From a virus (lineage: Duplodnaviria; Heunggongvirae; Uroviricota; Caudoviricetes), in the IMG/VR virus record IMGVR_UViG_3300033148_007488, positions 1-64,000 of that record: a DNA stretch of 64,000 nt. One strand, written 5' to 3'. Of the stretch, positions 15,447-31,359 are shown piece by piece (positions within the stretch are counted from its first letter, which is position 1; every line of letters starts with the position of its first letter). The position numbers were made by a program, and so were the translations under genes. The notes beneath the pieces are model-generated. The model was given only the letters and a program-made list of their open reading frames with translations. It did no database searches and was not told where the DNA came from.

Positions 15447-16163
15447 TTATTCAATCTGAACATTATCAAAAAGAACCGTTCCTGCATACTTGATAACAGC
15501 TTGTTTTGCGAGTAGGAAGATTTCTTTATAATGAAGCTTATCTTCCATTCCTTGCTTAATGGTCTCATTGGCCACATGTTCAGCCATGACAATCATATGT
15601 AGTTTCATCCGGTCTAATGTGTCTCTGAAATTTGATGGTACTTTTTCCTTGTATTCAAGAAGTCTCAGGGCTACGTATTCCATTTTTGTTATGTTGCCAT
15701 AATATCTTGATGCTGATTTTGATCCTTGCTTTGTTGCATAATCAACGAATTCTTGAATACAACCTGTTAATTCAAGTCTAACAATTTTGCTGTCATCTCG
15801 AACCTGTTTCCACACTAAATCTTTATGATTTAGTAGAGTTCTTTCCATCAAGTTAAAAGCTTCAATGAAATCCATTTTCCATTTTAAAGCCTTATTTCCG
15901 GTAAAGCTCATTGCCAGCAATGAGAATGAATTTCGATCCATTTCGAAGTATCTAAAATCACGCCCCCTGATTGTTCTTTTTTTCTCAACAAAGGAATAAT
16001 GCGGCTTCCGAGTGCGTTTTTTTTCGTCCATGACTTTTTCTACACTCGTTTTCAGCTTGTCAATAGACTTTAATACCCTATCATGAGGTTTACCGAACTT
16101 TTCAGCAAGAACCCTACTATCTGCAACAGCATTACCCTTTTTAATAAATACTAAGTCGGTCAT
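15447..16163 (-). CDS. Phage regulatory protein Rha family.
   Basis: The N-terminus 'VFIKKGNAVADSRVLAEKFGKPHDRVLKSIDKL...LLAMSFTGNKALKWKMDFIEAFNLME' matches the Phage_pRha pattern (..v.tsS..vAe.FgK.H..VlR.I..l...LLamgf.g.kA..fk..yi.aF..mE). Confidence 0.6.
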   Translation of the reverse strand: MTDLVFIKKGNAVADSRVLAEKFGKPHDRVLKSIDKLKTSVEKVMDEKKRTRKPHYSFVEKKRTIRGRDFRYFEMDRNSFSLLAMSFTGNKALKWKMDFIEAFNLMERTLLNHKDLVWKQVRDDSKIVRLELTGCIQEFVDYATKQGSKSASRYYGNITKMEYVALRLLEYKEKVPSNFRDTLDRMKLHMIVMAEHVANETIKQGMEDKLHYKEIFLLAKQAVIKYAGTVLFDNVQIE

Positions 16164-16216: not shown

Positions 16217-17491
16217 GTGGGAAAATGTGTCAATAGATATTTACGGAATTATGCACCACCGTTTGCCCATAATACCATATTATGCAACGATTATCTAAAA
16301 ACTAACTTACCCGACAAGGTTTTTATGAATTATCAAGCACCAGCCCCCGCAATGTCTTTGTTCTCAGCAAAAAGACCGGAAGAAAAGATCCACGTAAAAA
16401 AGAAAGAAGTTTACACTCTTGAGGATAGTTACAGCTTCCAAGGTATGCCTATTTCCATTGAAAATAAAGCTGGGAACTATCGCACAGGCAAAGACGGAGA
16501 CGGCCACGAATGGAAAACATTCATGTATTATGATTATGGATATATCAGAAATACAGAGGCTAAAGATGGTGAAGCCGTGGACGTTTATGTCAACAAAGAA
16601 GGCAGGAAATCAAATCTGGTTCATGTAATCCACCAAAAGAAAATTGAAGAAGTAAAGAAGTGGAAAAATGGAATCTGTCCTACCTGCAAGAAAAAGCATT
16701 TCAAATGCAAACACGCTTATGATGAAGATAAGGTTATGCTTGGATTTGATTACCGTGATGATGCAATCAAAGCTTATACCGCTCAATATGATTCTCCTCT
16801 TTTCTTGGGGCCTGTCTCTACCTACACAATTGAGGAATTCAAAGGACATCTCAAGAATTCGTGGGGGAAGAAACTTCCTTATAATAGGTTAGAGAAGGGA
16901 TGTGCAGTCAAAAAAGGGAATACTAGGTTTATAACAACTTCTGAATTGGGTACAAAGGTTGACGAAATGTACAAAGCCGATAAAAAAGAAGGCGAAACAA
17001 GAGATGAGTTTGTTAATAGATCCTTGAAAGAAATTGTAGCCAAACAACAGATGTCTGGGCTGGACAAATCCTATCTAGGACAACCAGGAGATCCAAGAGG
17101 ATCATTCGCATGGTTAAGAGAAAATCTGGATACCGTACCAGCCTCTTCAAAAATAAAAATAAAGAACAAAGTAACACTCGCTACTTACGAAGCACCAAGT
17201 TATTTAAAAACAACCATCGATGAAATATTAACCAGTAAAATGGAGAAAAGTATGGAACCTTATTCAGTCAAAAAACATTCTTGTACATCTGATGAAGATT
17301 ATATGTTGAATCGTGAACAAGGAGAAACCAAACAACAGTACGATTGGCGGATGAGGCTTGAATCCAGAACTTCAAAAGGAAGTCGGATTTGGAATGAAGG
17401 TGTTCATGTAGAAGCTGTAAATGATTATCCTCACGGAATGTACAAATCTACTAAAAAAATTATTGTTCCAACAGAAAAACAGGTGATATGA
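16217..17491 (+). CDS. Hypothetical protein whose N-terminal region resembles the inorganic-pyrophosphatase fold.
   Basis: 'ISIENKAGNYRTGKDGDGHEW..FMYYDYGYIRNTEAKDGEAVDVYV' aligns to E. coli PPase '[21 protein letters not shown]...[25 protein letters not shown]'. The downstream Asp residues are not conserved. The real start may be the internal ATG at 16325 (MNYQAP...). The stop overlaps the start of effector paralog A. Confidence 0.45.
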   Translation: MGKCVNRYLRNYAPPFAHNTILCNDYLKTNLPDKVFMNYQAPAPAMSLFSAKRPEEKIHVKKKEVYTLEDSYSFQGMPISIENKAGNYRTGKDGDGHEWKTFMYYDYGYIRNTEAKDGEAVDVYVNKEGRKSNLVHVIHQKKIEEVKKWKNGICPTCKKKHFKCKHAYDEDKVMLGFDYRDDAIKAYTAQYDSPLFLGPVSTYTIEEFKGHLKNSWGKKLPYNRLEKGCAVKKGNTRFITTSELGTKVDEMYKADKKEGETRDEFVNRSLKEIVAKQQMSGLDKSYLGQPGDPRGSFAWLRENLDTVPASSKIKIKNKVTLATYEAPSYLKTTIDEILTSKMEKSMEPYSVKKHSCTSDEDYMLNREQGETKQQYDWRMRLESRTSKGSRIWNEGVHVEAVNDYPHGMYKSTKKIIVPTEKQVI

Positions 17492-18432
17492 TGCAAGTTC
17501 CTAAATTACTTCTTTTCAGTCCTTTCCAAAAAGGTTTCGTCAGGGCTCATACCCGTAAAGGTAAAACCGTTGGCCCCTATTTCACGAAACGCCAGAAAAA
17601 AATAGGCACTGTCAAGCACACCAAAAAAACAAGAGTGGACTATTCCGAAAAGGATGCTCAACTCAAAATCAAACTCTTGGAAGAAAAAAAGAAACACCAT
17701 AATCTCCACGTCGAAGCGGCTAAAGAACTAAAAGAAAAAGTCGATTCTCACAAAGCAAAAGGCCATTCAACCTTCAAAATAGGCAACAAAGAACACGACA
17801 TCTCAAAGGTCGCCAAAGATCTGAATAACCATATTGAACACCACTCTAACGAGGTCAAATCACACGATAATCATATCTCAAAGATCAAGGATCGATATAA
17901 AACGGATAGGGAGTATTTTGCTAAGAAAAAAGTGGTAAAAACAATCGTAAAAAAAGAAAAACCGAATATGCACGTTGATTTATCGAATCTTCCAAAATTG
18001 GAAGGTGTTTCAGAAAAACAAGTTAGTTATGCTAATGATATAAGGGATGTTGTTTTAAACAATGATATTATAAAAGTTCTTGATGCGACAAAAGAAAATT
18101 ATGATAAATCAATAAAAGAACAAAGAGAACGGCTAAGAAGCAGAGGAAAATCAGATAGCAAATCGCTTTTAAGAAAAATTGAATATCAAAAAACTATTGA
18201 TAGATATAAAAATTTACTTGGAAGATTTAAGAAAGAAACAAGCGCATCCTTTTTTTTAGATCATCACCATTCTATGTTAAAAGTTTATAGACGGTCTACT
18301 ATGTCAGAAAGAATGCAGCAAATGAGTGATGATTGGATCAAGAGCGAAAATATAAAAGATGCCAAATCATACATTGAGTATGACTTGGCAATGAGGGACA
18401 ATCCGATTATGCCAATGTTAAGCAAGCTTTAA
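17488..18432 (+). CDS. Paralog A of a putative packaged/ejected protein family. It has the conserved N-terminal module plus a unique C-terminal domain.
   Basis: The N-terminus MMQVPKLLLFSPFQKGFVRAHTRKGKTVGPYFTKRQ.. is shared with ORFs 20136, 26853 and 29452. About 450 nt at the 5' end are roughly 90% identical to 26853..27300. Confidence 0.6.
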   Translation: MMQVPKLLLFSPFQKGFVRAHTRKGKTVGPYFTKRQKKIGTVKHTKKTRVDYSEKDAQLKIKLLEEKKKHHNLHVEAAKELKEKVDSHKAKGHSTFKIGNKEHDISKVAKDLNNHIEHHSNEVKSHDNHISKIKDRYKTDREYFAKKKVVKTIVKKEKPNMHVDLSNLPKLEGVSEKQVSYANDIRDVVLNNDIIKVLDATKENYDKSIKEQRERLRSRGKSDSKSLLRKIEYQKTIDRYKNLLGRFKKETSASFFLDHHHSMLKVYRRSTMSERMQQMSDDWIKSENIKDAKSYIEYDLAMRDNPIMPMLSKL

Positions 18433-18949
18433 ATTCATCCTTGGTTATGTTTGAGCATAATACATTTATCTGTTCAGCATGTTCTTTGATATTTCTAGCT
18501 CTATCAAATACAAATTTCCATGATATATCTTGTCCGCCTTGTGATAAATTTAAACTCTTACTTACATATGTTTTGTTAGTGACATTCCTATCGTAAATAG
18601 TCATCCATTCGCTTGTGCCATAAATATGTAATTCAAAACCATCTGGGATTACAAATAATTTTTTATGTTTTCCTCTCATAAAACCGGATTTTATCTTTGA
18701 TATCCATATGTTTTTTTGTGAAGTCAGATCTTGTAAGTGAACCCCAACTTTCCCTTCTTTTTTATGGTTATACCGCTCGTTAATTTCTTGAATGTTGTCA
18801 TTCACCCATTTTCTTGATTCAAAAATTTGTTGCGAATTATGAGCAATATACTTTCTCCAGCCTAACTTGCACCCTATTTTTAGACTTTGAATATCATTAG
18901 ACTGGAATTCGTGGCTATAATCTATCCCATTAGATAATCTAAATTTCAT
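18407..18949 (-). CDS. Hypothetical protein.
   Basis: ORF of 180 aa, convergent with paralog A. Confidence 0.45.
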   Translation of the reverse strand: MKFRLSNGIDYSHEFQSNDIQSLKIGCKLGWRKYIAHNSQQIFESRKWVNDNIQEINERYNHKKEGKVGVHLQDLTSQKNIWISKIKSGFMRGKHKKLFVIPDGFELHIYGTSEWMTIYDRNVTNKTYVSKSLNLSQGGQDISWKFVFDRARNIKEHAEQINVLCSNITKDEFKACLTLA

Positions 18950-19200
18950 GATATAGCCTTATCCACACAGGCTCTCATTTTTTCATCAAAAGAGTCATCT
19001 TCGTACTGATCAAAATCATCATCTTGTTTTGTGAGTAAACGATAAAACCCGTATGGAGTATGGCGGAGCGGTATCTCAATTTCAACATTACCGTTTTTAT
19101 ATGTGATTTCAAGTTCTATTTCATTGAGTATTTTTACTGATGTTACAAAATAATGTGCTGTTGCTATTCTAACACCTTGTTCCAATGTTGTTTTTAACAT
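18946..19200 (-). CDS. Hypothetical small acidic protein.
   Basis: ORF of 84 aa. It is preceded (on the - strand) by the repeated promoter-like element and GGAG. Confidence 0.45.
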   Translation of the reverse strand: MLKTTLEQGVRIATAHYFVTSVKILNEIELEITYKNGNVEIEIPLRHTPYGFYRLLTKQDDDFDQYEDDSFDEKMRACVDKAIS

Positions 19201-19206
19201 CCCAAT

Positions 19207-19480
19207 CTCCAGTTTTGATGTTTTGTTAAATCTTTGTGACTCAACTTGATATTAGTAGATCATAGTAAATTTACTAATGCAAGCTTTATTTGAATTTATC
19301 CACGAGTTTTTTTAATAAAACATTCGCTGGATCATCTGGCTTCCTGTCTTCCCAGTTTCTAAGGAGTTTTGTCGCAAAAGCCTTGAACCCCATGTTCAAA
19401 CCAGCTTCCTGAATCATTTTATCCATTCGTTGGTTCTTGCGTTTTATTAGTTCTTTTTTTGGTATTGCTGCCATGTTTTC
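19207..19480. repeat. Copy 1 of a ~270-bp duplicated segment (small basic-protein gene plus a ~85-nt upstream-element module). A second full copy lies at 28331..28600 and a partial copy (element only) at 19981..20060.
   Basis: 'CTCCAGTT..AAATCTTTGTGACTCAACTT(G/A)A(T/C)ATTAGTAGATCATAGTAAATTTACT(A/T)ATGCAAG' plus the near-identical 61-62-aa ORF. On the - strand the element ends in GGAG followed by the ATG of the downstream gene. Confidence 0.55.
19286..19474 (-). CDS. Small basic protein (62 aa), paralog of 28409..28594.
   Basis: 'PKKELIKRKNQRMD.M..EAGL.MGFK.FATKLLRNWEDRKPDDPANVLLKKLVDKFK' is nearly identical in the two copies. Confidence 0.5.
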   Translation of the reverse strand: MAAIPKKELIKRKNQRMDKMIQEAGLNMGFKAFATKLLRNWEDRKPDDPANVLLKKLVDKFK

Positions 19481-19495
19481 CTTTGAATTTGATTA

Positions 19496-19524
19496 AAGCC
19501 CCGAAGGGCTTATTTTTAAAAATA
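19496..19524. terminator. GC-rich tetraloop hairpin AAGCCC-CGAA-GGGCTT (a UUCG loop on the minus-strand RNA), followed on the + strand by ATTTTTAAAAAT.
   Basis: A perfect 6-bp stem. It sits 4 nt after the stop of 19516..19974 and 22 nt before the next start. It may be a terminator or an RNA-stability element. Confidence 0.3.
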
Positions 19525-19974
19525 CTTTTCAACTTCTTTTCGGAAAGAAACGGATTCTGTTTTCCAATCATACCGTTCAGAAATTTCTTTTAGTTCTCCA
19601 TTATCCTGAACTTTATAAATAAGACCCTCTTTATATCCATTTTTAACTGATCCACAAGGTATGCATTCAATTACAATAGAACCTGAATCAATTTCATGCT
19701 GCCCTTCTGAGAGAAAATCACCGACATATGCATAGCCATCTTTTTGAGTTGAGTCTATTGAGGTTACATGTTTTAGCCATGATTCACGTCTTCCACTCGC
19801 TGTTCTTGTCACGATAGTAACAGTAACGAGTTTATTTTTAGATTTCGGTTCAACTGTTTCCTGAAGTTCATTTTTCCAATCATTCAACATTGTATCGGCT
19901 TTCCCGCCTTCAATAAAGCTATTCCGTTTAAGATCTGCTATAATTTCACAGATAAAGTCTAAATCTTTTTTCAT
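19516..19974 (-). CDS. Hypothetical protein.
   Basis: ORF of 152 aa. It is preceded by a copy of the repeated upstream element. Confidence 0.5.
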   Translation of the reverse strand: MKKDLDFICEIIADLKRNSFIEGGKADTMLNDWKNELQETVEPKSKNKLVTVTIVTRTASGRRESWLKHVTSIDSTQKDGYAYVGDFLSEGQHEIDSGSIVIECIPCGSVKNGYKEGLIYKVQDNGELKEISERYDWKTESVSFRKEVEKYF

Positions 19975-19980
19975 ATCAAT

Positions 19981-20060
19981 CTCCAGTTGATTTATTTTGC
20001 TGAATCTTTGTGACCCAACTTAATATCATTAGAACAAAGTAAACTTACCTTGTCAACCCA
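19981..20060. repeat. Partial third copy of the upstream element (CTCCAGTTGATTTATTTTGCTGAATCTTTGTGACCCAACTTAATATCATTAGAACAAAGTAAACTTAC).
   Basis: It lies immediately upstream (on the - strand) of gene 19516..19974. Confidence 0.45.
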
Positions 20061-20135
20061 TATTTCACCCTTTGAAAAATAATTTAAAATAAGTAATATA
20101 ATCCATGGAGACACTAACTAATATTAAGGCTTATA

Positions 20136-21893
20136 ATGATTATTCCTTTATTTACTCTTTTCACCCCTTTTGAAAAAGGTTTCGTCCACGCTACAAGCTA
20201 CACAAACAAGCAAGGAAAGCCTGTTCACCGTAAGGCATACACAGACAAGCGTATTGCCAAAAAAGTAGTAGCAAAGGACAAAATACGCACTCCATGGACC
20301 AAAGATAAAACCTACCAAGAAGTCAAAGAAAAGCTTCACACCGAAAGAGACTCACTAAAAAAGAAACTCGAAGATGTCCGGGCTCACAAAGAAGAACTCC
20401 TTGAAGCAAAAAAGAAAGGATACACCCACACAAAAAGAGGAATCAAGGTTGATCATGAACACCACCTGAAAACCCACGAAAAGAATATCCATGAAAAACT
20501 GGAAACCACCAATCACAAAATCATGCTCCACGCAAGTCACAAAGAGTTGCTTAGAGAAAAAATTGAGGAGACAAGGGAGAAAGCGAGAGAAAAAAGAAAA
20601 GCCACTTCAAAAGAATTCAAAAATCAATCTGAATACATGGATTGGTACAGGAAGCAATCCACAAAAATAAAGGATGAACATAAGCTTAATAAAACTGATG
20701 GGAAGTTGATTGCATCGTGGGGTAAACCTTCAGAAAAGAAACCTCTTCCTAAAAAAGCTGTAGTGGTTAAGGATAAAAAGAAAGTCTCTGTTCCCCCTAA
20801 AGTTGCAAAGCAAAAAGAAAAAGATATTAAATTTTATACTAGACGGTTAGAAAAAGTTAAAGATCATTGGGGCGGTGATAACAAAAGCGGTTCTATGGGT
20901 GCTCAGGAAAAAGGCCCGTTAATGATAAAATATGCTCAAGCACAGCTTGACGCTGTTAAAAATGGAAAAAGTCCTTTTGAAGTAAAATTAAAAGAGGAAA
21001 AGATAGTAGTCCCCAAGGAAAAAGAGATTGATTATTCAAAAATCAAAGTAGGCAGAGAAGACTACAAAGAAAGAAAAGAAGCTAAAATTGACCGATTAAG
21101 AGATAGAGCAGAAAAAGCGCAAAGTGAATCTGATTCCAGATATAAATCAGCAAAGCAAACGGCTGATATGATACCATTCGGGCAACCTATTTTAGTTGGA
21201 CATCATTCTGAAGGAAGGGCAAGAAGAGATCAGCAAAAAATTCATGATAATATGGGCCGTTCAATCAAAGCACAGGAAAAAGCTGGAAGATTAAGTGATA
21301 GAGCAGACTCCGCAGAAAATAATCGTTCTATCTCCTCAGATGACCCAGAGGCGGCAGTTAAGCTAAAACAAAAGCTTGATAATTTAGAAAAACTTCAAGC
21401 AAAAATGAAAGAAATAAATGCAGCTTACAGGAAGTTTAAAAAGAATCCTGCCACACTTGATAAATCTGGCTTAGAAGAAAATCACAAGAAAACAATCAGA
21501 GATTTTGTCCCTCAATATTCATGGGAAAAAGGACCATTCCCATCATATAGAATGACAAACAACAACGCTACTATCCGCAACACTAAAAAGCGTTTAGATG
21601 GCATGGTAGCCAGTTCGGGTGCAGAAACAAAAACTCTTTATGAAAAAGGAGATATTAAGGTAGTCGATAATGTTGAAGATAATAGAATTCAAGTGCATTT
21701 CCCTGATAAGCCAGATGAAGCAACAAGAAAAGCTCTTAAATCGAATGGTTTTAAGTGGGCTCCTAGTGTTGGAGTATGGCAACGCAAGCGGTCTCCTAAC
21801 GCCAGATTCTCGACTAAGTATTTAATTAAAGAGTTGGAGTCTATGTCCAAGTCCGTAGCAATTCCTTTAATGCTATTATTCAAAGCTGTCTAA
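20136..21893 (+). CDS. Paralog B of the packaged/ejected family. It has a divergent N-terminal module (MIIPLFTLFTPFEKGFVHA..., K/H-rich helices) and a C-terminal DUF3560-like region.
   Basis: The LF.PF.KGFV motif is shared. The C-terminal 'IPFGQPILVGHHSEGRARRDQQKIHDN' resembles the DUF3560 family I recall from plasmids and phages (..iPfGQPilvGHHSe.r.rr...). Confidence 0.55.
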   Translation: MIIPLFTLFTPFEKGFVHATSYTNKQGKPVHRKAYTDKRIAKKVVAKDKIRTPWTKDKTYQEVKEKLHTERDSLKKKLEDVRAHKEELLEAKKKGYTHTKRGIKVDHEHHLKTHEKNIHEKLETTNHKIMLHASHKELLREKIEETREKAREKRKATSKEFKNQSEYMDWYRKQSTKIKDEHKLNKTDGKLIASWGKPSEKKPLPKKAVVVKDKKKVSVPPKVAKQKEKDIKFYTRRLEKVKDHWGGDNKSGSMGAQEKGPLMIKYAQAQLDAVKNGKSPFEVKLKEEKIVVPKEKEIDYSKIKVGREDYKERKEAKIDRLRDRAEKAQSESDSRYKSAKQTADMIPFGQPILVGHHSEGRARRDQQKIHDNMGRSIKAQEKAGRLSDRADSAENNRSISSDDPEAAVKLKQKLDNLEKLQAKMKEINAAYRKFKKNPATLDKSGLEENHKKTIRDFVPQYSWEKGPFPSYRMTNNNATIRNTKKRLDGMVASSGAETKTLYEKGDIKVVDNVEDNRIQVHFPDKPDEATRKALKSNGFKWAPSVGVWQRKRSPNARFSTKYLIKELESMSKSVAIPLMLLFKAV

Positions 21894-22190
21894 TGTGCGA
21901 AGGTTGCAGGATCATCATAAAAATGTAATAATCATATAATTTTAACGCTAAAGGTCATCAGCGGCCACAAATCCAGCCCATAGAAAGGGCTAGAATAAGA
22001 CAATTAATTTCACATTACAGCGGCGATTAACCCGTCTGCTGTACCGATTTGTTAGTTTTTTAAAAGGTAGAACGATGACAAAAGTTAATATGTTTGCATA
22101 TAAAATGAGAATGTCTGAATTAATAACAGGCAACCCGTTAGCATGGTTTTTGAATCCTGGGTATTGGGTAAAAAGTAATGCCCCTAAAAA

Positions 22191-22889
22191 TCACAAACAA
22201 AATCTCGACAACTGTTTGAAATTTTCTTGCATTAAATCTAAAGGTGATGAATAGCAAGAATATGAAAATGCTTTCCCACCACTAAATACAAACATTGATC
22301 CGACTTCACCAATCAATGATGGTTCGTCAGATTTGTCCTTTTCTATTAGTTCCCTGAAATATTTAGCGGGGTCTTCCGTGATTCTGGTTTCGTTAAAAAC
22401 GATATTCAAAGACTGCTTGTTGGCCAGAGCGAAAGGAATTAATCTGCGGTCACGGCACAAAACATAATTTAGTTCGTCTTTTATTTCTTCTGGAGGGTAT
22501 ATGGTGATTATAGCTCGATGGATTGTGAATTCCACATAATCTAATATAATCAATTCAGGGCGATTTTTAAGTAAAAGAGCGTATTCAGCATCTGTCAGCT
22601 TTTCCTTAATAACACCGTGAGTAACTTTGCTGTAATATTTCGCTAGATCAGTAATTTTTTTTAACAATGATTCAACATCATTATATTTATCATGTTTTTC
22701 AAATTCTGAAAGATAAGAAATAGGATCTATTATTTCTGATATGCTGTCTGAGCCACAAATAGCAATAGCATACCTATTGCCGACATAGCTAATCTTATCC
22801 ACCCTAATATTGTGCTTCGATTCTAAATTATCAGCAGCCAACACTCCAAACTTATCTTTTTTCGAAACGTACCCATAAATAGCTGTCAT
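22191..22889 (-). CDS. Hypothetical protein.
   Basis: ORF of 232 aa. The N-terminus is MTAIYGYV... Confidence 0.5.
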   Translation of the reverse strand: MTAIYGYVSKKDKFGVLAADNLESKHNIRVDKISYVGNRYAIAICGSDSISEIIDPISYLSEFEKHDKYNDVESLLKKITDLAKYYSKVTHGVIKEKLTDAEYALLLKNRPELIILDYVEFTIHRAIITIYPPEEIKDELNYVLCRDRRLIPFALANKQSLNIVFNETRITEDPAKYFRELIEKDKSDEPSLIGEVGSMFVFSGGKAFSYSCYSSPLDLMQENFKQLSRFCL

Positions 22890-22966
22890 ACATTTCTCCT
22901 ATGCTATTTGATTAAAAAATCCCTCTTTTGATATGATCACCTAAACCTCAAATTTAAGGAGACGAA

Positions 22967-23302
22967 ATGGGGCTCAAAACCATAACAACAGAAGAATTAA
23001 ATAAAAAAACAGAAAAAGAACTTTTGGTCCTCATTTTTAGAGAACAAGAAGCCACCTATCACGAAACTAATAGTGTAAGCTACCAGCTTAGATTAATCGC
23101 TTCATTAATGATGATTAATCAAAATCATGAAGGGATTAAAAAAGCTGGATTTGAAGGGCTTATACCAATGAAGCACCTAGGAGTGACGAAAGAATACCTG
23201 CAACAAGTGGGTGTTTCGCTAGATCTTGGATGGTTCCAAGGAGATCAGACTTTTGGTCAGGAGACAGCTCAGGATGATTCTCAATCCGATCAGAAAGTTT
23301 AA
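22967..23302 (+). CDS. Hypothetical protein.
   Basis: ORF of 111 aa with a strong SD (AAGGAGACGAAATG). It overlaps the convergent ORF 23160..23639 by about 140 nt, so one of the two may be shorter or spurious. Confidence 0.4.
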   Translation: MGLKTITTEELNKKTEKELLVLIFREQEATYHETNSVSYQLRLIASLMMINQNHEGIKKAGFEGLIPMKHLGVTKEYLQQVGVSLDLGWFQGDQTFGQETAQDDSQSDQKV

Positions 23303-23639
23303 GGAGTAGGTCAAGGCCTGAAGAGTTATTAACTGTAGCGGTCGAATTATCGAAGGCGATGCCCGCACCATGAATAGAACCATTGAAATTTATGCTTGTG
23401 TTACCACCCTCAACGACACCACGAACAATATTGTATCCTTTTTCAGTCAGCTTAATTGATTGCCCATATTCTTGTTTGATAAGGTCACGTTCAAAAAGAG
23501 GACTTAAAACATAATTGGGGTCCGAAGTGTTCACGGCTTTGAAAATTAATGTTTTAGGAATAGGTTTAATTCCCTCTTTTTCATGAGTATCAGCCATGAA
23601 TTTTAGGATGTCTTTTTCTATTGGTGATAATGGTAACAT
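23160..23639 (-). CDS. Hypothetical protein.
   Basis: ORF of 159 aa with protein-like composition. It overlaps the convergent + strand ORF. Confidence 0.4.
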   Translation of the reverse strand: MLPLSPIEKDILKFMADTHEKEGIKPIPKTLIFKAVNTSDPNYVLSPLFERDLIKQEYGQSIKLTEKGYNIVRGVVEGGNTSINFNGSIHGAGIAFDNSTATVNNSSGLDLLLKLSDRIENHPELSPDQKSDLLGTIQDLAKHPLVAGILSSLLGASLV

Positions 23640-23826
23640 TTTCTATCCCATATTATGATGAATAAATTAAAAATAAAACAAGCTATCAGAGACATAGGTA
23701 TAGCCCTGAATTTAGTTAACAACACCATAGCCACGGATGACGTGAACGCACAGCCATCTGAAACATCATGGCAGGTTGACAATTCAAAAGAGATCGACCA
23801 GTTGAAGGAGCTTGAAAGATTACTCC

Positions 23827-24033
23827 TTAATGACACTGATACCTGCCCTTTATGTAATCACTGTAATGAGTTCCCTTAGACGTTGAGTTGTAAAAGCTAT
23901 CAAATACAACTTGAGGGACATTGCAGTACTCATAGGTGTCACCACTCTGTACAAATGTGACTTCCATTCGTTGTGTCATGGAGTCATAACCTATGGAACT
24001 GATGGCCCTTGATTGAACGTCAAATGTTTCCAT
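23827..24033 (-). CDS. KTSC-domain small protein.
   Basis: 'IGYDSMTQRMEVTFVQSGDTYEYCNVPQVVFDSFYNSTSKGTHYSDYIKGRY' matches the KTSC domain pattern (..Yd.....L.v.F..G..Y.Y..Vp..v...f..a.SkG..f...Ik..Y). Confidence 0.5.
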   Translation of the reverse strand: METFDVQSRAISSIGYDSMTQRMEVTFVQSGDTYEYCNVPQVVFDSFYNSTSKGTHYSDYIKGRYQCH

Positions 24034-24086
24034 ATTTTTACCACTAAAGAAGTTCTTAAACTAACTCGAAATCACTGGGCGGCTTT

Positions 24087-25118
24087 ATGCTCCAGTGTAT
24101 TTATTTGTTAAAAATGTGCGAAGAATGCAACCAAAAGCACCATTCTATATTTCAGTCTGGTGTTGAAACTGGCTTATCCCACTTTGACCAATTAGATACC
24201 TATTACCCTGGACTGAATCAATACGGTGTTGAATATGATAGCATGAAAAAAGCTGTTGTCATCAGTCCCCAAAAAGTAAGGTACGGTGAAGAGTCCTTTG
24301 ATAATTACATTCAGGAGCTTCTTGAAGAACTTAGTGATGGTTTAAGATTAGGAGATAAAAAAGAGCATATCAAAAATGTTCTACGAAAATTCAGTGACCG
24401 GAAATTTCAAGATAAGAACTGGTGGGGAAACCTGACTGAAAAGGAACTTGAAGAGCTTTTAGCAGGGATCAGGTCTTACTACCTTCCTCACACCGCAATG
24501 CTCAATTCTGGACTATCTGAGGCTTATATTTTCGGCAAATTCTCAAAACTTCTTACTGAAAGCATGTCTCTTAAGAAAGCCAGAGCGACAGTCAAAGGAT
24601 TAGAACTCACCACTTTTGATAAAGCAAGAATCGATGCCATTCAAAAGACCTCTCATATATTCTGGAACAAAGCGATCAGTAGAGAAGCAGATTCAGCAGC
24701 CATTAAATTACTCAAATACAACCGGGACGTAACAACTGAAATCCTCAAAGATCCAAATAGAAAGAATTGGCGGTCCTTGACCAGCGATATATACAACAGT
24801 ATAAATAAAGACAAATCAATTATTTTAAGGGATTTAGACAGAATTACGAGGACTGAAACGGCTTATTCTCAGAATTATGCGGTGTTGGCTTCGGGAAAAG
24901 ATACAGGGGCCAAATACTTTTTTGTTCAGGTCAGACCAACGGCCTGTAAGATTTGCAAAGGGATGTATCTTTACAAGAATGGGAAGCCAAGGCGGTTTTT
25001 AATTGAGGATGTTATGGATTTGCCAAGGGATCTTAATTGGGGTAAAAAACCTAATGATTTCAGTATGACAGCACCACCCAGTCACCCGTTTTGCTTTTGT
25101 AGAATTATGACAGAATAA
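24087..25118 (+). CDS. Phage head-morphogenesis protein of the Mu gpF / SPP1 gp7 (MuF) family.
   Basis: The C-terminal signature is 'RTETAYSQNYAV...APPSHPFCFCRI' (RTE....PP.HPnCRC). It lies in the effector block, away from the capsid module. Confidence 0.6.
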   Translation: MLQCIYLLKMCEECNQKHHSIFQSGVETGLSHFDQLDTYYPGLNQYGVEYDSMKKAVVISPQKVRYGEESFDNYIQELLEELSDGLRLGDKKEHIKNVLRKFSDRKFQDKNWWGNLTEKELEELLAGIRSYYLPHTAMLNSGLSEAYIFGKFSKLLTESMSLKKARATVKGLELTTFDKARIDAIQKTSHIFWNKAISREADSAAIKLLKYNRDVTTEILKDPNRKNWRSLTSDIYNSINKDKSIILRDLDRITRTETAYSQNYAVLASGKDTGAKYFFVQVRPTACKICKGMYLYKNGKPRRFLIEDVMDLPRDLNWGKKPNDFSMTAPPSHPFCFCRIMTE

Positions 25119-25147
25119 CAACGATATCAGTAACGTAGGAGGCGAAA

Positions 25148-25282
25148 ATGATAAAATGGGCAGTACTTGGGACAATATTTGTAATAGGTCTCTACTCAAT
25201 CATAGGAACAGTATGTCAAAGCAGAAACGAGTTTGTTTCTGGAATCTTAACTTTTACAGGGCTAAACCAAACCTGTAATAAA
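25148..25282 (+). CDS. Possible 44-aa single-TM peptide (MIKWAVLGTIFVIGLYSIIGTV...).
   Basis: I translated it by hand. It has a strong SD (TAGGAGGCGAAAATG). The overlapping - strand ORF 25216..25620 looks like a shadow. Confidence 0.3.
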
Positions 25283-25300
25283 TTGATCAAAAGGTGAATT

Positions 25301-25759
25301 ATGAATGAACAAAAATTGAGAGAGAACAATAAAAACCTGAAAATTGAGAATGACAAACTCATAATCAAGATTAAGGAATTGGAAAAGAACGCTCCTCTTC
25401 TGGAAAAATCAACAAAGAAAGTGGATGATCTTGGATCGCAATTAGAAGAATCAAAAAACAAAGTATCAGGTCTTTCCATTGAAGTGGAAAGCAGAGATTC
25501 ATCTATTAAAAACATGCAAGGCCAGATTTCAGCATTGGAAAAGAAGGTTGGAAAAGCAAGTGGACCTTTCCCACGTCTTCCTGTTAGAAATAGCAGCATA
25601 CAAAAAGCGGTTCTTGCCACAGAAATCGGAATCAGCGAAGATGAGCAATTACAACTTTATTATGTCGAGATGAAAGATAAAAATATCCCGGCATGTATGC
25701 TGAAAGTTCGGATGAAAAACGGAAAATGTACAAGTGCTGATTTCAGTCGGTGGAAATAA
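25301..25759 (+). CDS. Coiled-coil protein.
   Basis: ORF of 152 aa with heptad-like K/E-rich sequence. Confidence 0.5.
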   Translation: MNEQKLRENNKNLKIENDKLIIKIKELEKNAPLLEKSTKKVDDLGSQLEESKNKVSGLSIEVESRDSSIKNMQGQISALEKKVGKASGPFPRLPVRNSSIQKAVLATEIGISEDEQLQLYYVEMKDKNIPACMLKVRMKNGKCTSADFSRWK

Positions 25760-25778
25760 ACTTGAATTTAGGAGACGA

Positions 25779-26285
25779 ATGGAAGACGATCTATACGATG
25801 ACATTTTCAGCCAAAAAAAGAATTTACCTGTATCAACAAAGCCCAATAAGAATGTCAAAACAGTTGAAGAGAAGGTAAAATTATGGCAGGAAATAGCCAA
25901 TAGGTGGCGTACAACGATCACGCAAAATGAAAAGGTCATTGTTATTTTTTGCATGTTGGCAGGGTTTGTATACTCTTATGCTGTCAATGAATGTACAGGG
26001 AATTTTGATGTTCCAATCTATGTATACGCTATGGCATTTGGAATTGTTATCCTTTGTTCATTGCTATTGATAGCCGAAAAGACGTTGCCTTTGCTGGTAC
26101 TGGTTAAGTTTTCAGCAGCGGCAGCTTTCGGACATGTAGCTATGATGTTTTTGATTGTAGCTGATGGGCCTATTGGGGTATTTACGGTTGCAACGTGTAG
26201 TTCACCTGTAACTATCGACTCTGTTATGGTCTGGCTTTTTGGATCAGGTACAGGTTATATAGCCGCTAATTTTCAGATGGAATAA
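25779..26285 (+). CDS. Multi-pass membrane protein.
   Basis: The start is probably MEDDLYDD, preceded by SD GGAGACGAATG. The track starts the ORF at 25734. The C-terminal half holds 3-4 hydrophobic helices. Confidence 0.5.
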   Translation: MEDDLYDDIFSQKKNLPVSTKPNKNVKTVEEKVKLWQEIANRWRTTITQNEKVIVIFCMLAGFVYSYAVNECTGNFDVPIYVYAMAFGIVILCSLLLIAEKTLPLLVLVKFSAAAAFGHVAMMFLIVADGPIGVFTVATCSSPVTIDSVMVWLFGSGTGYIAANFQME

Positions 26286-26593
26286 TGATGAAATATATAT
26301 TCATTCTCCTCTTCTTAATTAGTTGTAATGGAGAAGTTAAAGAAAAACCTGAAGAAAAGGTCAATATTCAAAGATTGGTCGGGATACTCCAAAATGCCGA
26401 ACTCGATCAAGAGATTTTAGTCGGTGGAGGATTTAAAATTACCGGGCATTTTGATTACAAGATTAAAAATCGTGGAATAGAGGAAGAGTGCAAAGGTTCT
26501 ATTTTCAGAAAAGAGTTTCCTGAATCTTTCTTTTATTTTTATGTTGATTGTCGTGGGAATTATATGTTTAATCTTTTGAGGAAAAAAATATGA
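26285..26593 (+). CDS. Small lipoprotein.
   Basis: MMKYIFILLFLISC: the lipobox is L-I-S-C. The start overlaps the upstream stop (TAATGATG). Confidence 0.5.
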   Translation: MMKYIFILLFLISCNGEVKEKPEEKVNIQRLVGILQNAELDQEILVGGGFKITGHFDYKIKNRGIEEECKGSIFRKEFPESFFYFYVDCRGNYMFNLLRKKI

Positions 26594-26856
26594 GTTTTAT
26601 ATGGGATATATGGAGTCTTTACCATTTTTGGGCATTGCTCCCTGTAGCAATAATGTTTTTCTTTGGTGCGTTTCTTTGGGTAAAAGTTGTTACTCCAAGT
26701 GATTATCATGAACGGAAGGCATGGAAACAACAGCGAGAAAATAAGAAATCAGGTCAAACAAAGTTCAGGCGTGTTGTTATGACCTCAATGATCTTAGTGT
26801 TCGGGTTGATGGCTTCAACAACATTCTGTTTTTCCTTCTATATGGCACTCAAATGA
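26590..26856 (+). CDS. Small two-TM membrane protein.
   Basis: ORF of 88 aa with two hydrophobic helices. It is coupled to its neighbours by ATGA overlaps. Confidence 0.5.
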   Translation: MSFIWDIWSLYHFWALLPVAIMFFFGAFLWVKVVTPSDYHERKAWKQQRENKKSGQTKFRRVVMTSMILVFGLMASTTFCFSFYMALK

Positions 26857-28148
26857 TACCCAGTATCCTTCTTTTCAGCCCCTTCCAGAAGGGATTTGTC
26901 AGGGCTCACACTCGCAAAGGGAAAACCGTTGGCCCCTATTTCACAAAACGTCAAAAGAAAATAGGCACCGTCAAGCACACCAAAAAAACCAGAGTCGATT
27001 ATTCAGAAAAGGATGCTCAACTCAAAATCAAACTCTTGGAAGAGAAAAAGAAACACCATAATCTCCATGTCGAAGCGGCTAAGGAACTCAAAGAGAAAGT
27101 CGATTCTCACAAAGCAAAAGGACATTCAACTTTTAAAATAGGCAATAAAGAACACGACATTTCCAAAGTGACCAAAGACCTGAATAATCACATTGAGCAC
27201 CATTCAAATGAAGTGAAATCACACGATAATCATATCTCAAAAATCAAGGATCGATATAAGACAGATAGGGAGTATTTTGGGAAGAAAAAGACACTTGTTA
27301 AAAAAGAATCCCCTATCTACAAAATAGAAAAAATAGGAGATTCAGACAGGTATAACTTTTATTATCCTGAAAAAGACGGGACACAAGGGTCCATGAAAGG
27401 AAGGCCGTTAGGACAAATTAGTATGTTTTTTAAAACTGGAAGGGCCACTGAAGCAATACCAGATAAGTTTGAAGGAAGAGAACATATGGGTGATTTAGTG
27501 CTAAAAAGTAAACCACGAAATGACCAGAATCCTACTCTTAGATTAGAAAAGAAAGGGCGAAAGTACAATATTTATTACCCTACACATGCAGGAAAACACG
27601 GTATAGTAGAGGGGCAAACTTTAGACCAAGCAAAAGATTTCTTCAAAAGATGGGCTAAAGGACCAGACGAATTTGAGGGGAAACATCTTCTTTTAAAGGA
27701 ACCCCAAAAAAGAGCTAAACCAAAACCAAAGAAAGTAGAACAACAGATAGATAGGGTTGATTATGAATCATTTTCAAAAGATGGGTGGGTACATAGAAAA
27801 ACAGCTTTAAAATTCACTCTCACAGAATCAGTAACGAAAACTCATTTCAAAGAATTGATGAGGCTTTCTCATAACTATAATTCAAGAGAAAAAACAGGGT
27901 ACATCAATGAAGACGACAAGGAAAAATTTCTTGCGCTTACCAATAAAATGAAAAGCTCAAGCCTCAAAAGAGCTAAAACATCACACAAAAGATCTTTAGA
28001 AAAGTTTCAAGAGATGAAACAGCAAAGTCGTTCAGGAGAGAAATACACTTTTGAAGACTACGTGGAGGATTTTATGGATCAGCACGTAGCCTTGATGTCA
28101 GATAAAGACAGGAGTGAAGCTTATAAAAACTATATAAGAGACACTTAA
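26853..28148 (+). CDS. Paralog C of the packaged/ejected family. It has the N-terminal module plus a C-terminal domain with an internal ~40-aa repeat.
   Basis: The first ~150 aa are nearly identical to paralog A. The C-terminal part repeats 'YN.YYP...G..G...G..L.QA..FFK....A..PD.FEG' twice. Confidence 0.6.
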   Translation: MIPSILLFSPFQKGFVRAHTRKGKTVGPYFTKRQKKIGTVKHTKKTRVDYSEKDAQLKIKLLEEKKKHHNLHVEAAKELKEKVDSHKAKGHSTFKIGNKEHDISKVTKDLNNHIEHHSNEVKSHDNHISKIKDRYKTDREYFGKKKTLVKKESPIYKIEKIGDSDRYNFYYPEKDGTQGSMKGRPLGQISMFFKTGRATEAIPDKFEGREHMGDLVLKSKPRNDQNPTLRLEKKGRKYNIYYPTHAGKHGIVEGQTLDQAKDFFKRWAKGPDEFEGKHLLLKEPQKRAKPKPKKVEQQIDRVDYESFSKDGWVHRKTALKFTLTESVTKTHFKELMRLSHNYNSREKTGYINEDDKEKFLALTNKMKSSSLKRAKTSHKRSLEKFQEMKQQSRSGEKYTFEDYVEDFMDQHVALMSDKDRSEAYKNYIRDT

Positions 28149-28330
28149 GATGGTTAAAATTGAAAATTTCTGGGGTCTTCATATTGGATGTCTTTTTCGG
28201 CCATTAAATTTAAAAGAAAGAATAAAACCTTTCTCATGATTTTTAATTTTGCGGAATATGTGTTTTCAAGTTTGTTAACCTTTTTTATCAAGTTTGATAT
28301 TATGCTTCTTATTTTAGCTTTCATCTTAAT

Positions 28331-28600
28331 CTCCAGTTAGTGGTTTCGTTAAATCTTTGTGACTCAACTTAACATTAGTAGATCATAGTAAATTTACTTA
28401 TGCAAGTTTTATTTGAATTTATCCACGAGTTTTTTTAATAAAACATTCGCTGGATCATCTGGCTTCCTGTCTTCCCAATTTCTCAGGAGCTTTGTAGCAA
28501 AAGATTTGAATCCCATGTCAAGACCTGCTTCTTTGACCATGATATCCATTCTTTGATTTTTACGCTTTATAAGTTCTTTTTTAGGTATTGGCATTGTTTC
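28331..28600. repeat. Copy 2 of the ~270-bp duplicated segment.
   Basis: See 19207..19480. Confidence 0.55.
28409..28594 (-). CDS. Small basic protein (61 aa), paralog of 19286..19474.
   Basis: It has the near-identical sequence and sits inside a ~270-bp duplicated segment. Confidence 0.5.
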   Translation of the reverse strand: MPIPKKELIKRKNQRMDIMVKEAGLDMGFKSFATKLLRNWEDRKPDDPANVLLKKLVDKFK

Positions 28601-29451: not shown

Positions 29452-31359
29452 ATGATACCCAGCCTACTTCTCTTCAGTCCATTCCAGAAAGGATATGTTC
29501 AGGCCCACACACGTAAAGGAAAAAGAGTAGGTCCTTACTTCACCAAAAGACAGCCCGGACAAGTCCAAGAAAAGCATACCAGAGACCGCTTTATTGACCA
29601 CGACAAAGCCAGTGCATCCAAAGCCCATGAAGAACTTGAATCACTTAAAGCCAAGCACCAAGAATTACTCAATGCAGCCAAGAAGCATCATGATGAAATA
29701 AAAAGCAAAGGACCAGTTGAAGGCGAAAGGGTAGACCACAAAACAAAACTTTCTCATCTCAAAGCAGAAATCAAGAATCAAAAGACTCACATAGACAACC
29801 ATTCCAGAAAACAAAAACTGATCAAGGACCGCTACAAAATAAGCAGCAAGCAGATTACCCAAAGAAAATCAAAGTCTGATCTGGAAAGAAAAATAGCTTC
29901 CCACTCAGACGGACAGAAAAAAACTATTCGTGCAATTCACGAAGCCCATAAAAAAGGTGAATCAAAACTTGAGCCTGGCAGAATTCTTAAAGGCAAAGAT
30001 AAAGACCATATTTATCTTGAAACAAAGCACAAGGACACAGGAGAAGCGCACCATATCGCCATTCATAAAGATGGTTCAGTTAAGGACCCCAATATTCTCC
30101 ATGGTGGAAAATTCGATTCAAAAACACTCAAAGAAGATGCCAAGCCAAAGAAGATTGTAGTTAAGTCTGAACCTAAAAAAGGAGTGACGGTTAAGAAACA
30201 AGAGCCATTTAAAAAAGTTGAGAAATCTGAGGCTAAGAAGATCGGTGTTAAGAAACAAGAGGAGAAAAAACAGACAAGATCGCAGGCCATGAAAGGCAAT
30301 AAGAATGCGTGGAAGGGAGGACCGAAGGATGAACCGAAAAAAGTCAAAGTTAAAACAAAAGAGGGATTGACAGCAAAAACTGGAACTTTAACATCAGGTG
30401 AAAAATCATCTTTGAGTTGGTATTCAGGAGATGGATTCCATAAATTAAATGAATATTTAAGAAAAGATAATGCATCTAAAAATAAGAGTCTTGATAAATT
30501 TACAGATAGTTTAAATAGTGCAATTAGTAAAAGTGAGATCACTAAAGATACAACGCTATATAGAGGCATAAACAATGATGAGTTAACAAAAAAATTCCAA
30601 TCAGTTAAAACTGGAAATAAGATTCCTGTTAGTTCGTTTCAAAGTACATCTTCTAGCGAACGAGCTTTATTTGCTCATGCAGGACTTGTAGGTGTTGCAT
30701 TGAAAATTAATGTTAAAAAAGGAACAAACATAGCTGATCTTGCAGGCAGCGGCACAGCTATGGACGCTAAAGAACAAGAAATCCTGTTGCCAAATAAAGG
30801 GCATTATGTGGTTAAAAGTGTAAGCAAACCAGAAAAAGGTGAATTAGGAAGAACTATAGTTGAAGTAGATTATATTCAAGATGAACAGGAAAAGAATGAA
30901 GATAAAAAAACTTCTAAAAAAGTTGAGAAATCTGAGGCTAAAAAGATTGTTGTTAAAAAATTAGATCAGGAGAAAAAAGAAACCAGGCTACCTGAAATAA
31001 AAAAAGGCCATTATATAAAGCGCAAGATATCGGGGCTCGGAGACAGACCTTCACCTTGGGAATATGTTTCATCTACTGTTAAAAACGGATTCATGGTTGA
31101 GGGTAGACCTTTTACGGTTCCGTTTTCAGATATTATAAGCGTTAGAACAGGAAACCCAGCACTTGGCCGTGGTGACGTGATTTATGATGATGGAAGCATC
31201 CAATCTAGGGTATTAAAGAAATCCATACCCACAACATCCAAACAATTAGAAAACTTATTGCAAGAAGAAAGACTGTTCAAATCCCTCAAATCTCCAGAGG
31301 AAATAAAACTCCTCAAGGAGAAGAGGAAACGAAGAAAGAAACGTAAAAATAAAAGGTAG
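29452..31359 (+). CDS. Paralog D of the packaged/ejected family. It carries the N-terminal module and a C-terminal mono-ADP-ribosyltransferase domain (R-S-E class, C3/Vip2/Alt-like).
   Basis: The N-terminus is MIPSLLLFSPFQKGYVQAHTRKGKRVGPYFTKRQ. The ART motifs, in order, are 'SLSWYSGDGFHKLNEYLRK', 'TLYRG' (Arg codon 30562-30564), 'FQSTSSSER' (STS at 30643-30651) and 'AKEQEILLP' (EQE at 30772-30780). The ART domain is flanked by 45-bp direct repeats encoding KKVEKSEAKKI.VKK. Confidence 0.7.
   Translation: MIPSLLLFSPFQKGYVQAHTRKGKRVGPYFTKRQPGQVQEKHTRDRFIDHDKASASKAHEELESLKAKHQELLNAAKKHHDEIKSKGPVEGERVDHKTKLSHLKAEIKNQKTHIDNHSRKQKLIKDRYKISSKQITQRKSKSDLERKIASHSDGQKKTIRAIHEAHKKGESKLEPGRILKGKDKDHIYLETKHKDTGEAHHIAIHKDGSVKDPNILHGGKFDSKTLKEDAKPKKIVVKSEPKKGVTVKKQEPFKKVEKSEAKKIGVKKQEEKKQTRSQAMKGNKNAWKGGPKDEPKKVKVKTKEGLTAKTGTLTSGEKSSLSWYSGDGFHKLNEYLRKDNASKNKSLDKFTDSLNSAISKSEITKDTTLYRGINNDELTKKFQSVKTGNKIPVSSFQSTSSSERALFAHAGLVGVALKINVKKGTNIADLAGSGTAMDAKEQEILLPNKGHYVVKSVSKPEKGELGRTIVEVDYIQDEQEKNEDKKTSKKVEKSEAKKIVVKKLDQEKKETRLPEIKKGHYIKRKISGLGDRPSPWEYVSSTVKNGFMVEGRPFTVPFSDIISVRTGNPALGRGDVIYDDGSIQSRVLKKSIPTTSKQLENLLQEERLFKSLKSPEEIKLLKEKRKRRKKRKNKR
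30205..30280 (+). repeat. Left copy of a ~45-bp direct repeat (AAAAAAGTTGAGAAATCTGAGGCTAAGAAGATCGGTGTTAAGAAA) flanking the ART domain. The right copy lies at 30919..30963.
   Basis: The protein repeat is KKVEKSEAKKIGVKK / KKVEKSEAKKIVVKK. Confidence 0.5.

Follow-up and report, generated by a model that had tools for sequence, protein, structure and literature searches.

An old, strongly constrained repeat in a family of modules that open effector-like genes of an uncultured tailed phage

Four rightward genes, called A, B, C and D here, lie in a 64,000-nucleotide stretch of a tailed-phage genome (positions 1 to 64,000 of IMG/VR record IMGVR_UViG_3300033148_007488; 36.8% G+C; "the window" below), and each opens with a variant of one protein module that is followed by a Lys-rich linker and then by unrelated sequence, the cargo. 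The modules of A and C are almost identical as proteins, but their DNA differs at about half of the sites where silent change can occur, so the duplication that relates them cannot be called recent. We are highly confident of this descriptive account, namely a module family, swapping of the cargo behind it, and an old duplication held under extreme constraint. The initial annotation of the window had described the A/C repeat, but it overlooked the three subtypes of the module (types 1 to 3, below), its four carrier genes and a second, colinear repeat arm. The genes and the repeated cores are as follows:

17488..18432, + strand: gene A, 314 aa; type-1 module and an orphan C-terminal cargo
17509-17931, + strand: type-1 module core in A, codons 8-148 (from blastn, codon comparison and repeat search)
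20136..21893, + strand: gene B, 585 aa; type-3 module at aa 1-~160, DUF3560 at aa 310-429
26853..28148, + strand: gene C, 431 aa; type-1 module and cargo
26868-27290, + strand: type-1 module core in C, codons 6-146 (from the same three comparisons)
29452..31359, + strand: gene D, 635 aa; type-2 module at aa 1-~228, junction motif, ADP-ribosyltransferase (ART) domain and C-terminal region

The repeat shared by A and C

The N-terminal DNA repeat of A and C is real. Comparison of the window with itself by blastn aligns 17509-17930 with 26868-27289 (88.9% identity over 422 nt, E=3e-158), a repeat search of the window also recovers the pair (offset 9359), and codon-by-codon comparison gives a gap-free core of 423 nt with 48 differences (88.7% identity), in which the longest identical run is 38 nt. 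The repeat does lie within the ranges first given for it, 17488-17940 and 26853-27300, but these values are the open reading frame (ORF) starts and approximate ends, not aligned positions. Gene A has two additional N-terminal codons, the initial five to seven codons of the two genes are unlike (MMQVPKL vs MIPSI), and by codon comparison there is no A/C similarity upstream of ~17500/26859. At the 3' side the identity, which had been expected to collapse near 17940 and 27300, does so slightly earlier, at 17931/27290, directly after 'REYF[A/G]KKK'. Past this breakpoint there is a three-codon indel and then a weak, Lys-rich linker likeness of about eight codons ('TIVKKEKP' vs 'TLVKKESP'). The 3' halves had been described as unrelated, and blastp indeed finds no significant similarity among the C-terminal halves of the four proteins A-D. 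The point after 'REYF.KKK', where a recombination junction had been proposed, is a genuine boundary between module and cargo, as other cargo begins at the same position in the family proteins P0003, P0022, P0032, P0008, P0021 and P0023.

The differences within the core fall 1, 1 and 46 at codon positions 1, 2 and 3, respectively (binomial P=6e-20 against an even spread), and 139 of the 141 encoded residues are identical, the two replacements being A109T (17812/27171) and A145G (17920-22/27279-81). By the Nei-Gojobori method there are 46 silent and two replacement differences (Sd=46, Nd=2), and the ratio of replacement to silent divergence, omega, is 0.006. Thus the largely synonymous, third-position nature of the changes, the near constancy of the encoded module and the action of purifying selection, all of which the initial annotation had claimed, are upheld, and that selection is very strong.

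Age of the A/C pair and constraint on its protein

The repeat had also been called recent, and here we disagree. The proportion of silent sites that differ (pS) is 0.55, the corrected silent divergence (dS) is ~1.0 (0.99) and the replacement divergence (dN) is 0.006, and where A and C have the same residue the codon is also the same in 67.6% of cases. The codon identity expected at saturation is 46% (standard deviation 4%) from genome codon usage or 51% from the module's own usage, and in comparisons of the module with orthologous modules of other phages it reaches a plateau of 56-60%; the silent sites of A and C are roughly 60-75% of the way toward saturation. A dS of ~1.0 and partial silent saturation leave "recent" without support. 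The ~89% identity of the DNA is due not to youth but to the near-total conservation of a Lys/Glu/His-rich protein sequence that has few synonymous sites. With P0003 as outgroup the silent changes are symmetric in polarity, P0003 agreeing with A at 17 sites and with C at 15, and with neither copy at 13.

The paucity of replacements is unusual for this phage. Comparisons with related contigs (L numbers; described below) gave dS 0.83 and omega 0.070 for W31720 vs L003, 1.45 and 0.08 for W32129 vs L003, 1.34 and 0.069 for the MuF-like gene vs L005, 1.39 and 0.12 for the InPase gene vs L005, and 0.83 and 0.14 for the B type-3 module vs P0011. Two further pairs are silent-saturated and give upper bounds only, omega <=0.036 for the A type-1 core vs P0003 and <=0.038 for the D module vs P0005. 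At omega values of 0.036-0.14 the A/C core would be expected to carry 12-47 replacements, and two are observed (Poisson P(<=2) 5e-4 to 4e-18). Between this phage and L006/L007/L009 the type-1 module is 53-54% identical, the MuF-like protein 55-61%, the major head protein (MCP) 57% and the portal 56%; since the module diverges between genomes much as these proteins do, it is not intrinsically slow to change. A and C thus make a clean natural case of in-genome copies long held identical as protein, and their omega of 0.006, against 0.07-0.14 for neighbours whose silent divergence is comparable, points to a specific binding partner.

The A and C modules are each other's closest relatives (98.6% amino acid identity) and are 86-89% identical to that of P0003, which carries a third kind of cargo. 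In the related contig L009, type-1 modules occupy both the slot of A (there inside an InPase polyprotein) and the slot of C, and these two are only 49% identical. The two slots are therefore ancient and the near-identity of A and C is a lineage-specific copy-over; the same 49% rules out concerted evolution as a general property of both slots. The A and C modules go back to a single copy, which displaced the other after the split from the P0003 lineage. This event is old (dS ~1), and afterwards the silent sites drifted symmetrically while almost no amino acid change was accepted. We infer that A and C were kept alike because both must fit one partner in the same virion.

A second repeat arm and the leftward cassettes

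The repeat search also found a second pair, 19220-19467 and 28343-28590 (248 nt, 88% identical, offset 9123). The two arms occur in the same order, and the A and C regions are therefore colinear segmental paralogs, each composed of the type-1 arm, variable cargo with unrelated leftward genes, and an arm that contains an intergenic element and a small gene:

19192..19291, no strand assigned: ~100-nt element between genes, core AATCTTTGTGACTCAACTT, lying upstream of the start of a leftward gene
19286..19474, - strand: 62-aa gene in the second repeat arm, paralog of 28409..28594
19966-20065: further copy of the ~100-nt element
28315..28414, no strand assigned: second copy of the ~100-nt element
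28409..28594, - strand: 61-aa gene, paralog of 19286..19474

The element core AATCTTTGTGACNCAACTT is present only three times in the window (at 19229, 20003 and 28352; 0.15 expected), and the core written as AATCTTTGTGAC[T/C]CAACTT occupies 19229-19247, 20003-20021 and 28352-28370. Every copy is just upstream, in the leftward sense, of the start of a leftward gene with a GGAG-like ribosome-binding site, and the element is probably a promoter or leader for leftward cassettes inserted between the rightward module-bearing genes. A search for shared k-mers gave nothing convincing as a shared promoter upstream of the module-bearing genes themselves. A homologue of the leftward gene at 18946..19200 is located in the gap between C and D of the relative L003, so cassettes move between the two gaps.

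Over the initial 38 aligned codons of the small-gene pair pS is 0.77 and dN is 0.087. Compared with the module, the small gene has a silent divergence at least as high and an ordinary replacement divergence (Fisher P=0.003). A perfect match of 70 nt (19285-19354) runs across the last 22 codons of the small gene and the adjoining element, and as the 5' part of the gene is silent-saturated the arm is a mosaic. The identical tract suggests later gene conversion or a constraint at the nucleotide level.

Could the duplication nevertheless be young, and the silent changes have been selected because they break up the homology of 423-nt direct repeats that lie 9.4 kb apart? Recombination between the repeats would delete B, the MuF-like gene and others, and as the flanked genes are probably essential this would impose a deletion load; near-perfect protein identity beside 11% DNA divergence would fit such selection, and the 70-nt tract in the second arm indicates that exchange between the regions occurs. 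We nonetheless think this very unlikely. The spacing of the differences is no more even than chance would give (the longest run of 38 nt compares with a simulated median of 32, P=0.81), the variance of the gaps is not reduced, the changes are split evenly between the copies, and the 55% of silent sites changed is far above what is needed for blocking recombination. Moreover, the co-duplicated neighbour has diverged as much or more at silent sites while its replacement divergence is ordinary, as age alone predicts. A simple recent in-genome duplication, its few differences filtered by purifying selection, is even less credible: A and C are indeed closest to each other (98.6% vs 86-89% to P0003) and their codon identity of 0.676 is above the saturation plateau, but pS is 0.55 and dS ~1.0, sister-phage orthologues at equal silent divergence differ at 9-17% of their amino acids, the co-duplicated 62-aa gene is silent-saturated, and the longest A/C identical run is only 38 nt.

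A family of modules in three subtypes

When the window was searched by tblastn with the A N-terminus, D was 38% identical over 148 residues and B was similar in only the first ~25. A 65-column profile of the four leaders matches only A, B, C and D within the window. This profile was searched exhaustively (HMMER) against 1.84 billion cluster representatives, and 43 proteins matched at E<=1e-3 (17 at E<=1e-10), of which two are low-complexity false positives and 41 are genuine. Nearly all matches are at residues 1-65 of proteins that are 76-2039 aa long, and a few are internal; the module follows an InPase domain in P0013, P0018, P0025, P0030, P0033 and P0042. No match was obtained in a word-indexed protein search with the 146-aa module, in a single-protein scan of viral contigs or in a type-1 alignment scan of metagenome contigs, and the full-length family alignment (A3) was too divergent to be used as a locus query. 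A DNA pattern for FSPFQKGFV had a single match, in the high-GC contig L001, which was judged to be chance (~1.5 matches expected). The module is absent from cultured phages (tblastn, megablast) and, in a scan with type 2, from 185,579 species genomes; given the latter absence, the phages that carry it look virulent.

All three types are present in the window. Type 1 (A and C) ends '...DRYKTDREYF.KKK', type 2 (D) is longer and has an additional conserved 'GKDKDHIYLE...HHIAIHKDGS' part, and type 3 (B) carries '...RKAYTDKRIAKK...'. None is covered by a model in Pfam, PHROG or NCBIfam. The module is thus previously uncatalogued in curated libraries, although the general kind of arrangement, a conserved handle with swappable effector cargo, is already known (below).

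From its N-terminus the module comprises a short hydrophobic tag (IPSILLFSPF), then a strongly basic beta unit (KGFVxAHTRKGKxVGPYFTKR), then a His/Lys-rich helical hairpin that is antiparallel and has a beta-hairpin at its tip; the Lys-rich linker and the unrelated cargo come after it. The leader has 13 Lys/Arg and one Asp/Glu in 39 residues, and the hairpin has 11 His. AlphaFold2, given 22 family sequences, predicts the type-1 module with a mean confidence score (pLDDT) of 82 (core >90) and with the following layout: disordered tag at 1-11, beta unit at 13-34, a flexible basic stretch, helix at 52-88, beta-hairpin at 93-102 and helix at 103-152. Apart from a C-terminal variant, the tag is confined to true N-termini (InPase polyproteins included), and it has been specifically added in forms where the module opens a separate gene.

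Three sets of similar sequences should be recorded here. First, type-3 proteins have a conserved C-terminal tail, '...GKSF..LF....P..LLFK..', present in B (21860-21890), P0011, P0027, P0035 and P0042; the tail of B, '...AIPLMLLFKAV', resembles the tag 'IP..LLFSPF', and some proteins seem to carry a tag at both ends. Second, MCP residues ~55-70, 'AAIPPSFLVKPLAKSFDD', are loosely like the A/C/D tag 'MIPSILLFSPFQKGFV', and the look-alike is kept in the orthologue of L007 (L007:17528-19450) as 'AELPPNFLGPVEPFVKSFDD'. A protease or the scaffold might recognise both, but this is no more than a post-hoc lead, as the loose pattern fires 0.23 times per proteome in shuffled sequences. Third, the polyprotein at L007:1-5496 (at least 1832 aa) has two further leader variants, 'KSFVKATTRHLKSGKLVP...', at aa ~178 and ~355, and an internal type-1 module at 614-753.

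Cargo and junction linkers

Pfam domains in the 41 family members include InPase (six proteins), ddrB-ParB (three), ART-PolyVal (three), DUF3560 (two), LPD1 (two), SNF2/ResIII/Sno-type helicase (two), RadC (two) and Peptidase_Mx (one). InPase is N-terminal to the module in fused proteins or is encoded by the gene just upstream. The cargoes of A and C have no relatives in Pfam, PHROG, NCBIfam or PDB sequences, and that of A has none even inside the module family. The C cargo has two tandem beta-beta-beta-alpha repeats of ~65-80 aa and a helical tail; the repeat (27306-27700, aa ~153-280), 'YNFYYP...G..G......FF......FEG', is present as a single copy in P0032 and P0008. The AlphaFold2 model of this cargo is poor overall (pLDDT 51), with each beta-beta-beta-alpha copy at 70-80.

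Domain junctions in the family are marked by KK[IV]VVKK-like linkers (23 found vs 0.3 expected) and by a motif, 'RSxAMxGNKNA[WFY]KGGPK', of which there are 18 copies in 12 family proteins, always between domains and after an acidic/Lys stretch. D carries it once, and it is also present in P0005, P0006, P0010, P0011, P0020, P0040 and others. We consider the RSxAMxGNKNA motif a candidate processing or recognition site. The relevant features of D are as follows:

30277-30327: junction motif RSQAMKGNKNAWKGGPK, aa 276-292
30385-30864: ADP-ribosyltransferase domain, aa 312-471; ADPrib_exo_Tox match, R/STS/ExE-type motifs visible

Direct repeats of 61 nt in D (30210-30270 and 30915-30975, 84% identical), which encode 'KKVEKSEAKKI[G/V]VKK...', flank the ART domain, which looks like a cassette inserted between two linker copies.

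Genomic slots and neighbouring genes

The phages that carry these genes form a clade of uncultured myoviruses. The related contigs are L002-L005 (short), L006/L009 (a 116 kb viral contig), L007/L008 (74 kb), L010, L013 (111 kb) and L015. Their common backbone is portal, InPase, module-bearing gene(s), MuF-like gene, four small ORFs, C slot and D slot. The C slot holds a type-1 gene, and past the D slot, which is type 2, come a 500-550-aa protein and, further on, the protease/MCP block. Synteny with cargo swaps and with split or fused forms is seen in L003-L007, L009, L010, L013 and L015. P0005 (L003) is 87% identical to D at residues 1-268 and then has ddrB-ParB instead of ART; P0011 (L005) is 81% identical to B at residues 1-205 and is different thereafter. 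What changes is the cargo, with the switch falling exactly at the linker, while the modules stay in their genomic slots. The genes are separate in the window, L004, L005 and L013, and are a single polyprotein at L009:4311-9272 and L007:1-5496. Other genes of the window are as follows:

6886..8742, + strand: portal-like protein
15447..16163, - strand: Rha-family regulator
16217..17491, + strand: InPase (PF18823) gene directly upstream of A; likely start near 16352 (MSLFSAKR...)
24087..25118, + strand: MuF-like minor head protein gene, mid-array; phrog_115 C-terminal match
31361..31708: RyR-domain protein, right after D
34861..36159, - strand: PAPS-reductase-like protein (phrog_2302, E=1e-107)
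44976..45803: SLT transglycosylase-domain protein
50607..51371: candidate head maturation protease, two genes upstream of MCP (phrog_1028, E=1.4e-7, a weak partial match)
52212..54152: major head protein (MCP)
54967..56694: tail sheath

Tail proteins are also encoded in the window. The block 49913-54152 is syntenic with L007:15240-19450, and the MuF-like gene, which is 55-86% identical in relatives, is a conserved synteny anchor. The start of A overlaps the stop of the InPase gene in an ATGA, and the start of C overlaps the preceding 88-aa ORF in the same way. The InPase gene ends in the linker '...KKIIVPTEKQVI*' just ahead of the A start, and in relatives it is fused to the module as a single ORF. 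A run of seven A residues (17453-17459) lies where the A frame opens (TAA at 17452-54), 30 nt before the InPase stop. A programmed -1 frameshift there, which would fuse InPase to A, was considered and rejected: such runs are frequent here (0.48 per kb) and the start of A is preceded by a conserved Shine-Dalgarno-like CAGGTG, so independent initiation of A is the simpler reading.

Comparison with known systems

The cargo links these genes to the polyvalent proteins that phages and conjugative elements encode (Iyer, Burroughs, Anand, de Souza and Aravind 2017; PMC5512222), which that paper proposes are packaged, injected against host defences and processed by zincin peptidases. The repertoire it describes is like that found here (ART, ddrB-ParB, InPase, SNF2, RadC, zincin peptidase, LPD1 and DUF3560-type domains), and in both cases the genes lie among virion genes (portal, MuF); the order of portal, MuF-like gene and MCP in the window also holds in L004, L007, L009 and L013. 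Extensive domain shuffling between relatives is also common to both. Polypeptides of 2-15 domains, typical of polyvalent proteins, are seen in P0026 (2039 aa), P0042, P0030, P0040 and L009:4311-9272, and such giant fused relatives are bona fide polyvalent proteins, whereas A-D of the window are a split arsenal in which each protein has the module and one cargo, recognisable or unknown. The main text of PMC5512222 does not describe any handle that recurs at N-termini or between domains.

Three other systems resemble the arrangement in A-D. In phage T4 the capsid targeting sequence (CTS), a conserved N-terminal element of IPI-III and of the Alt ADP-ribosyltransferase, loads these proteins into the prohead for injection (PMC3012670, PMC5694885). 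There too one N-terminal element is present on otherwise unrelated, fast-diversifying anti-host proteins that include an ART, but the CTS has 10-20 residues and is removed by the prohead protease, whereas the present module has 141 to ~230 aa, a predicted fold and three subtypes and is also found internally. A T4-type CTS acts by binding to the scaffolding core. The CTS and the module have no sequence similarity, and no L/I-x-E-type site could be assigned at the module boundary. In phages phiKZ and SPN3US, paralogous ejection proteins share propeptides of >100 residues that are inferred to target them to the prohead, and their extreme N-termini can be identical between paralogs, as in gp53/gp54 (PMC5694885). 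Those protein families differ from ours, as A-D have no match to pfam12699, which defines inner-head paralog family A (Pfam, E<=0.01); the cargo in the present family is made up of enzymatic effector domains that can be recognised, and jumbo-phage status is not indicated. In temperate phages, the MuF polymorphic toxins (Jamet et al. 2017; PMC5576092) have a constant N-terminal head-associated domain, MuF (SPP1 gp7 / Mu F), and a C-terminal toxic or effector domain that is exchanged by recombination. The constant N-terminus and variable C-terminus are a likeness by analogy only: A-D have no MuF domain match, the MuF-like protein is encoded by a separate gene, and no immunity genes are evident.

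The predicted module fold, a helix, beta-hairpin and helix in an antiparallel coiled coil, is also like that of prefoldin beta. Fold searches gave only non-significant coiled-coil and prefoldin matches (Foldseek best E for prefoldin beta 0.14, with TM-score 0.48 by query and 0.67 by target; TM-scores by target 0.6-0.67 overall). The sequences are not similar, and an N-terminal basic beta unit is additional in the module. This likeness is no evidence of homology or of chaperone function.

A possible loading function

We propose that the module may be a loading handle, for which the T4 CTS and the phiKZ/SPN3US propeptides are the closest precedents. A, B, C and D are a set of four modular effector-type genes that lie among the head-morphogenesis genes of an uncultured myovirus. 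Each opens with a module variant that is followed by the Lys-rich linker and by cargo of the polyvalent repertoire. The module would dock or load the effector into the procapsid, or hold it with the DNA, the effectors would be delivered into the host at infection, and a shared binding partner in the virion would keep A and C identical as proteins. The loading function by itself is a tentative proposal, a little short of probable in our judgement; the full account, in which it is joined to the module family, the cargo swapping and the old constrained duplication, is the one that we favour, if only modestly.

Several points weigh against the loading proposal. A-D are at most candidate virion proteins, and no cultured phage carries the module. 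The module is also found inside polyproteins, so that it cannot be a strictly N-terminal signal. A motif for protease cleavage could not be assigned, the prohead protease match is weak (E=1.4e-7, partial) and the structural likeness to prefoldin is non-significant (E>=0.14). The shared partner is our interpretation of omega=0.006, and the saturated dS of A vs P0003 blocks calibration with the same module. Finally, the module may correspond to an LPD domain of PMC5512222 that never reached Pfam.

A different role, compatible with that of a loading handle, is that the module acts in the infected cell as a nucleic-acid or target adaptor that tethers the enzymes to phage DNA or to one host complex. 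The strongly basic leader (13 Lys/Arg vs one Asp/Glu in 39 residues) would suit this, as would the position of the module between polyprotein domains, where an N-terminal sorting signal is less sensible, and polyvalent proteins have been proposed as DNA escorts (PMC5512222). We consider it unlikely, since Pfam and fold searches found no similarity to known DNA-binding domains and the placement of the hydrophobic tag fits a sorting or docking peptide better. More unlikely still is that the module merely spaced or helped to process the domains of a giant ancestral polyprotein, of which the separate genes are fission products that retained the spacer N-terminally, and that it has no role in targeting. 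InPase, module and cargo are indeed fused in P0013, P0018, P0025, P0030, P0033, P0042 and L009:4311-9272 and split in the window, L004, L005 and L013, the InPase gene ends in the linker motif just before the A start, and Zn-peptidase domains, proposed in PMC5512222 as polyprotein processors, are present in the family; however, an omega of 0.006, a confidently predicted fold and three subtypes conserved across 41 clusters are unexpected in a passive spacer, as is the specific addition of the N-terminal tag in split forms.

If the module is a loading handle, a more elaborate scheme can be drawn, which we offer as speculation that is unlikely in its entirety. The three module types would be a dedicated cargo-loading system in which the hairpins of A-D co-assemble in a prefoldin-like manner, by way of their beta-hairpin tips and coiled coils, or in which the tag, of which the MCP has a look-alike in its N-terminal region, docks on one capsid, portal or scaffold site; A and C would be held identical by occupying equivalent positions, and the two repeat arms (the module, and the 62-aa gene with its element) would be recombination handles that swap effector cassettes between slots and between co-infecting phages. 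Were this true, any domain behind the Lys-rich linker would be packaged and injected.

Counter-defence by a phage begins with the proteins that it injects along with its DNA. To our knowledge, how diverse effectors are selected for packaging is understood only in a few model phages, the P1 Dar system and the T4 CTS being examples. If true, the presence of one folded, modular handle on dozens of polyvalent-type effectors, in three subtypes that hold fixed genomic slots, would amount to a new loading logic that operates whether the effectors are split or fused; a confirmed handle would also provide a portable tag with which foreign proteins could be packaged.

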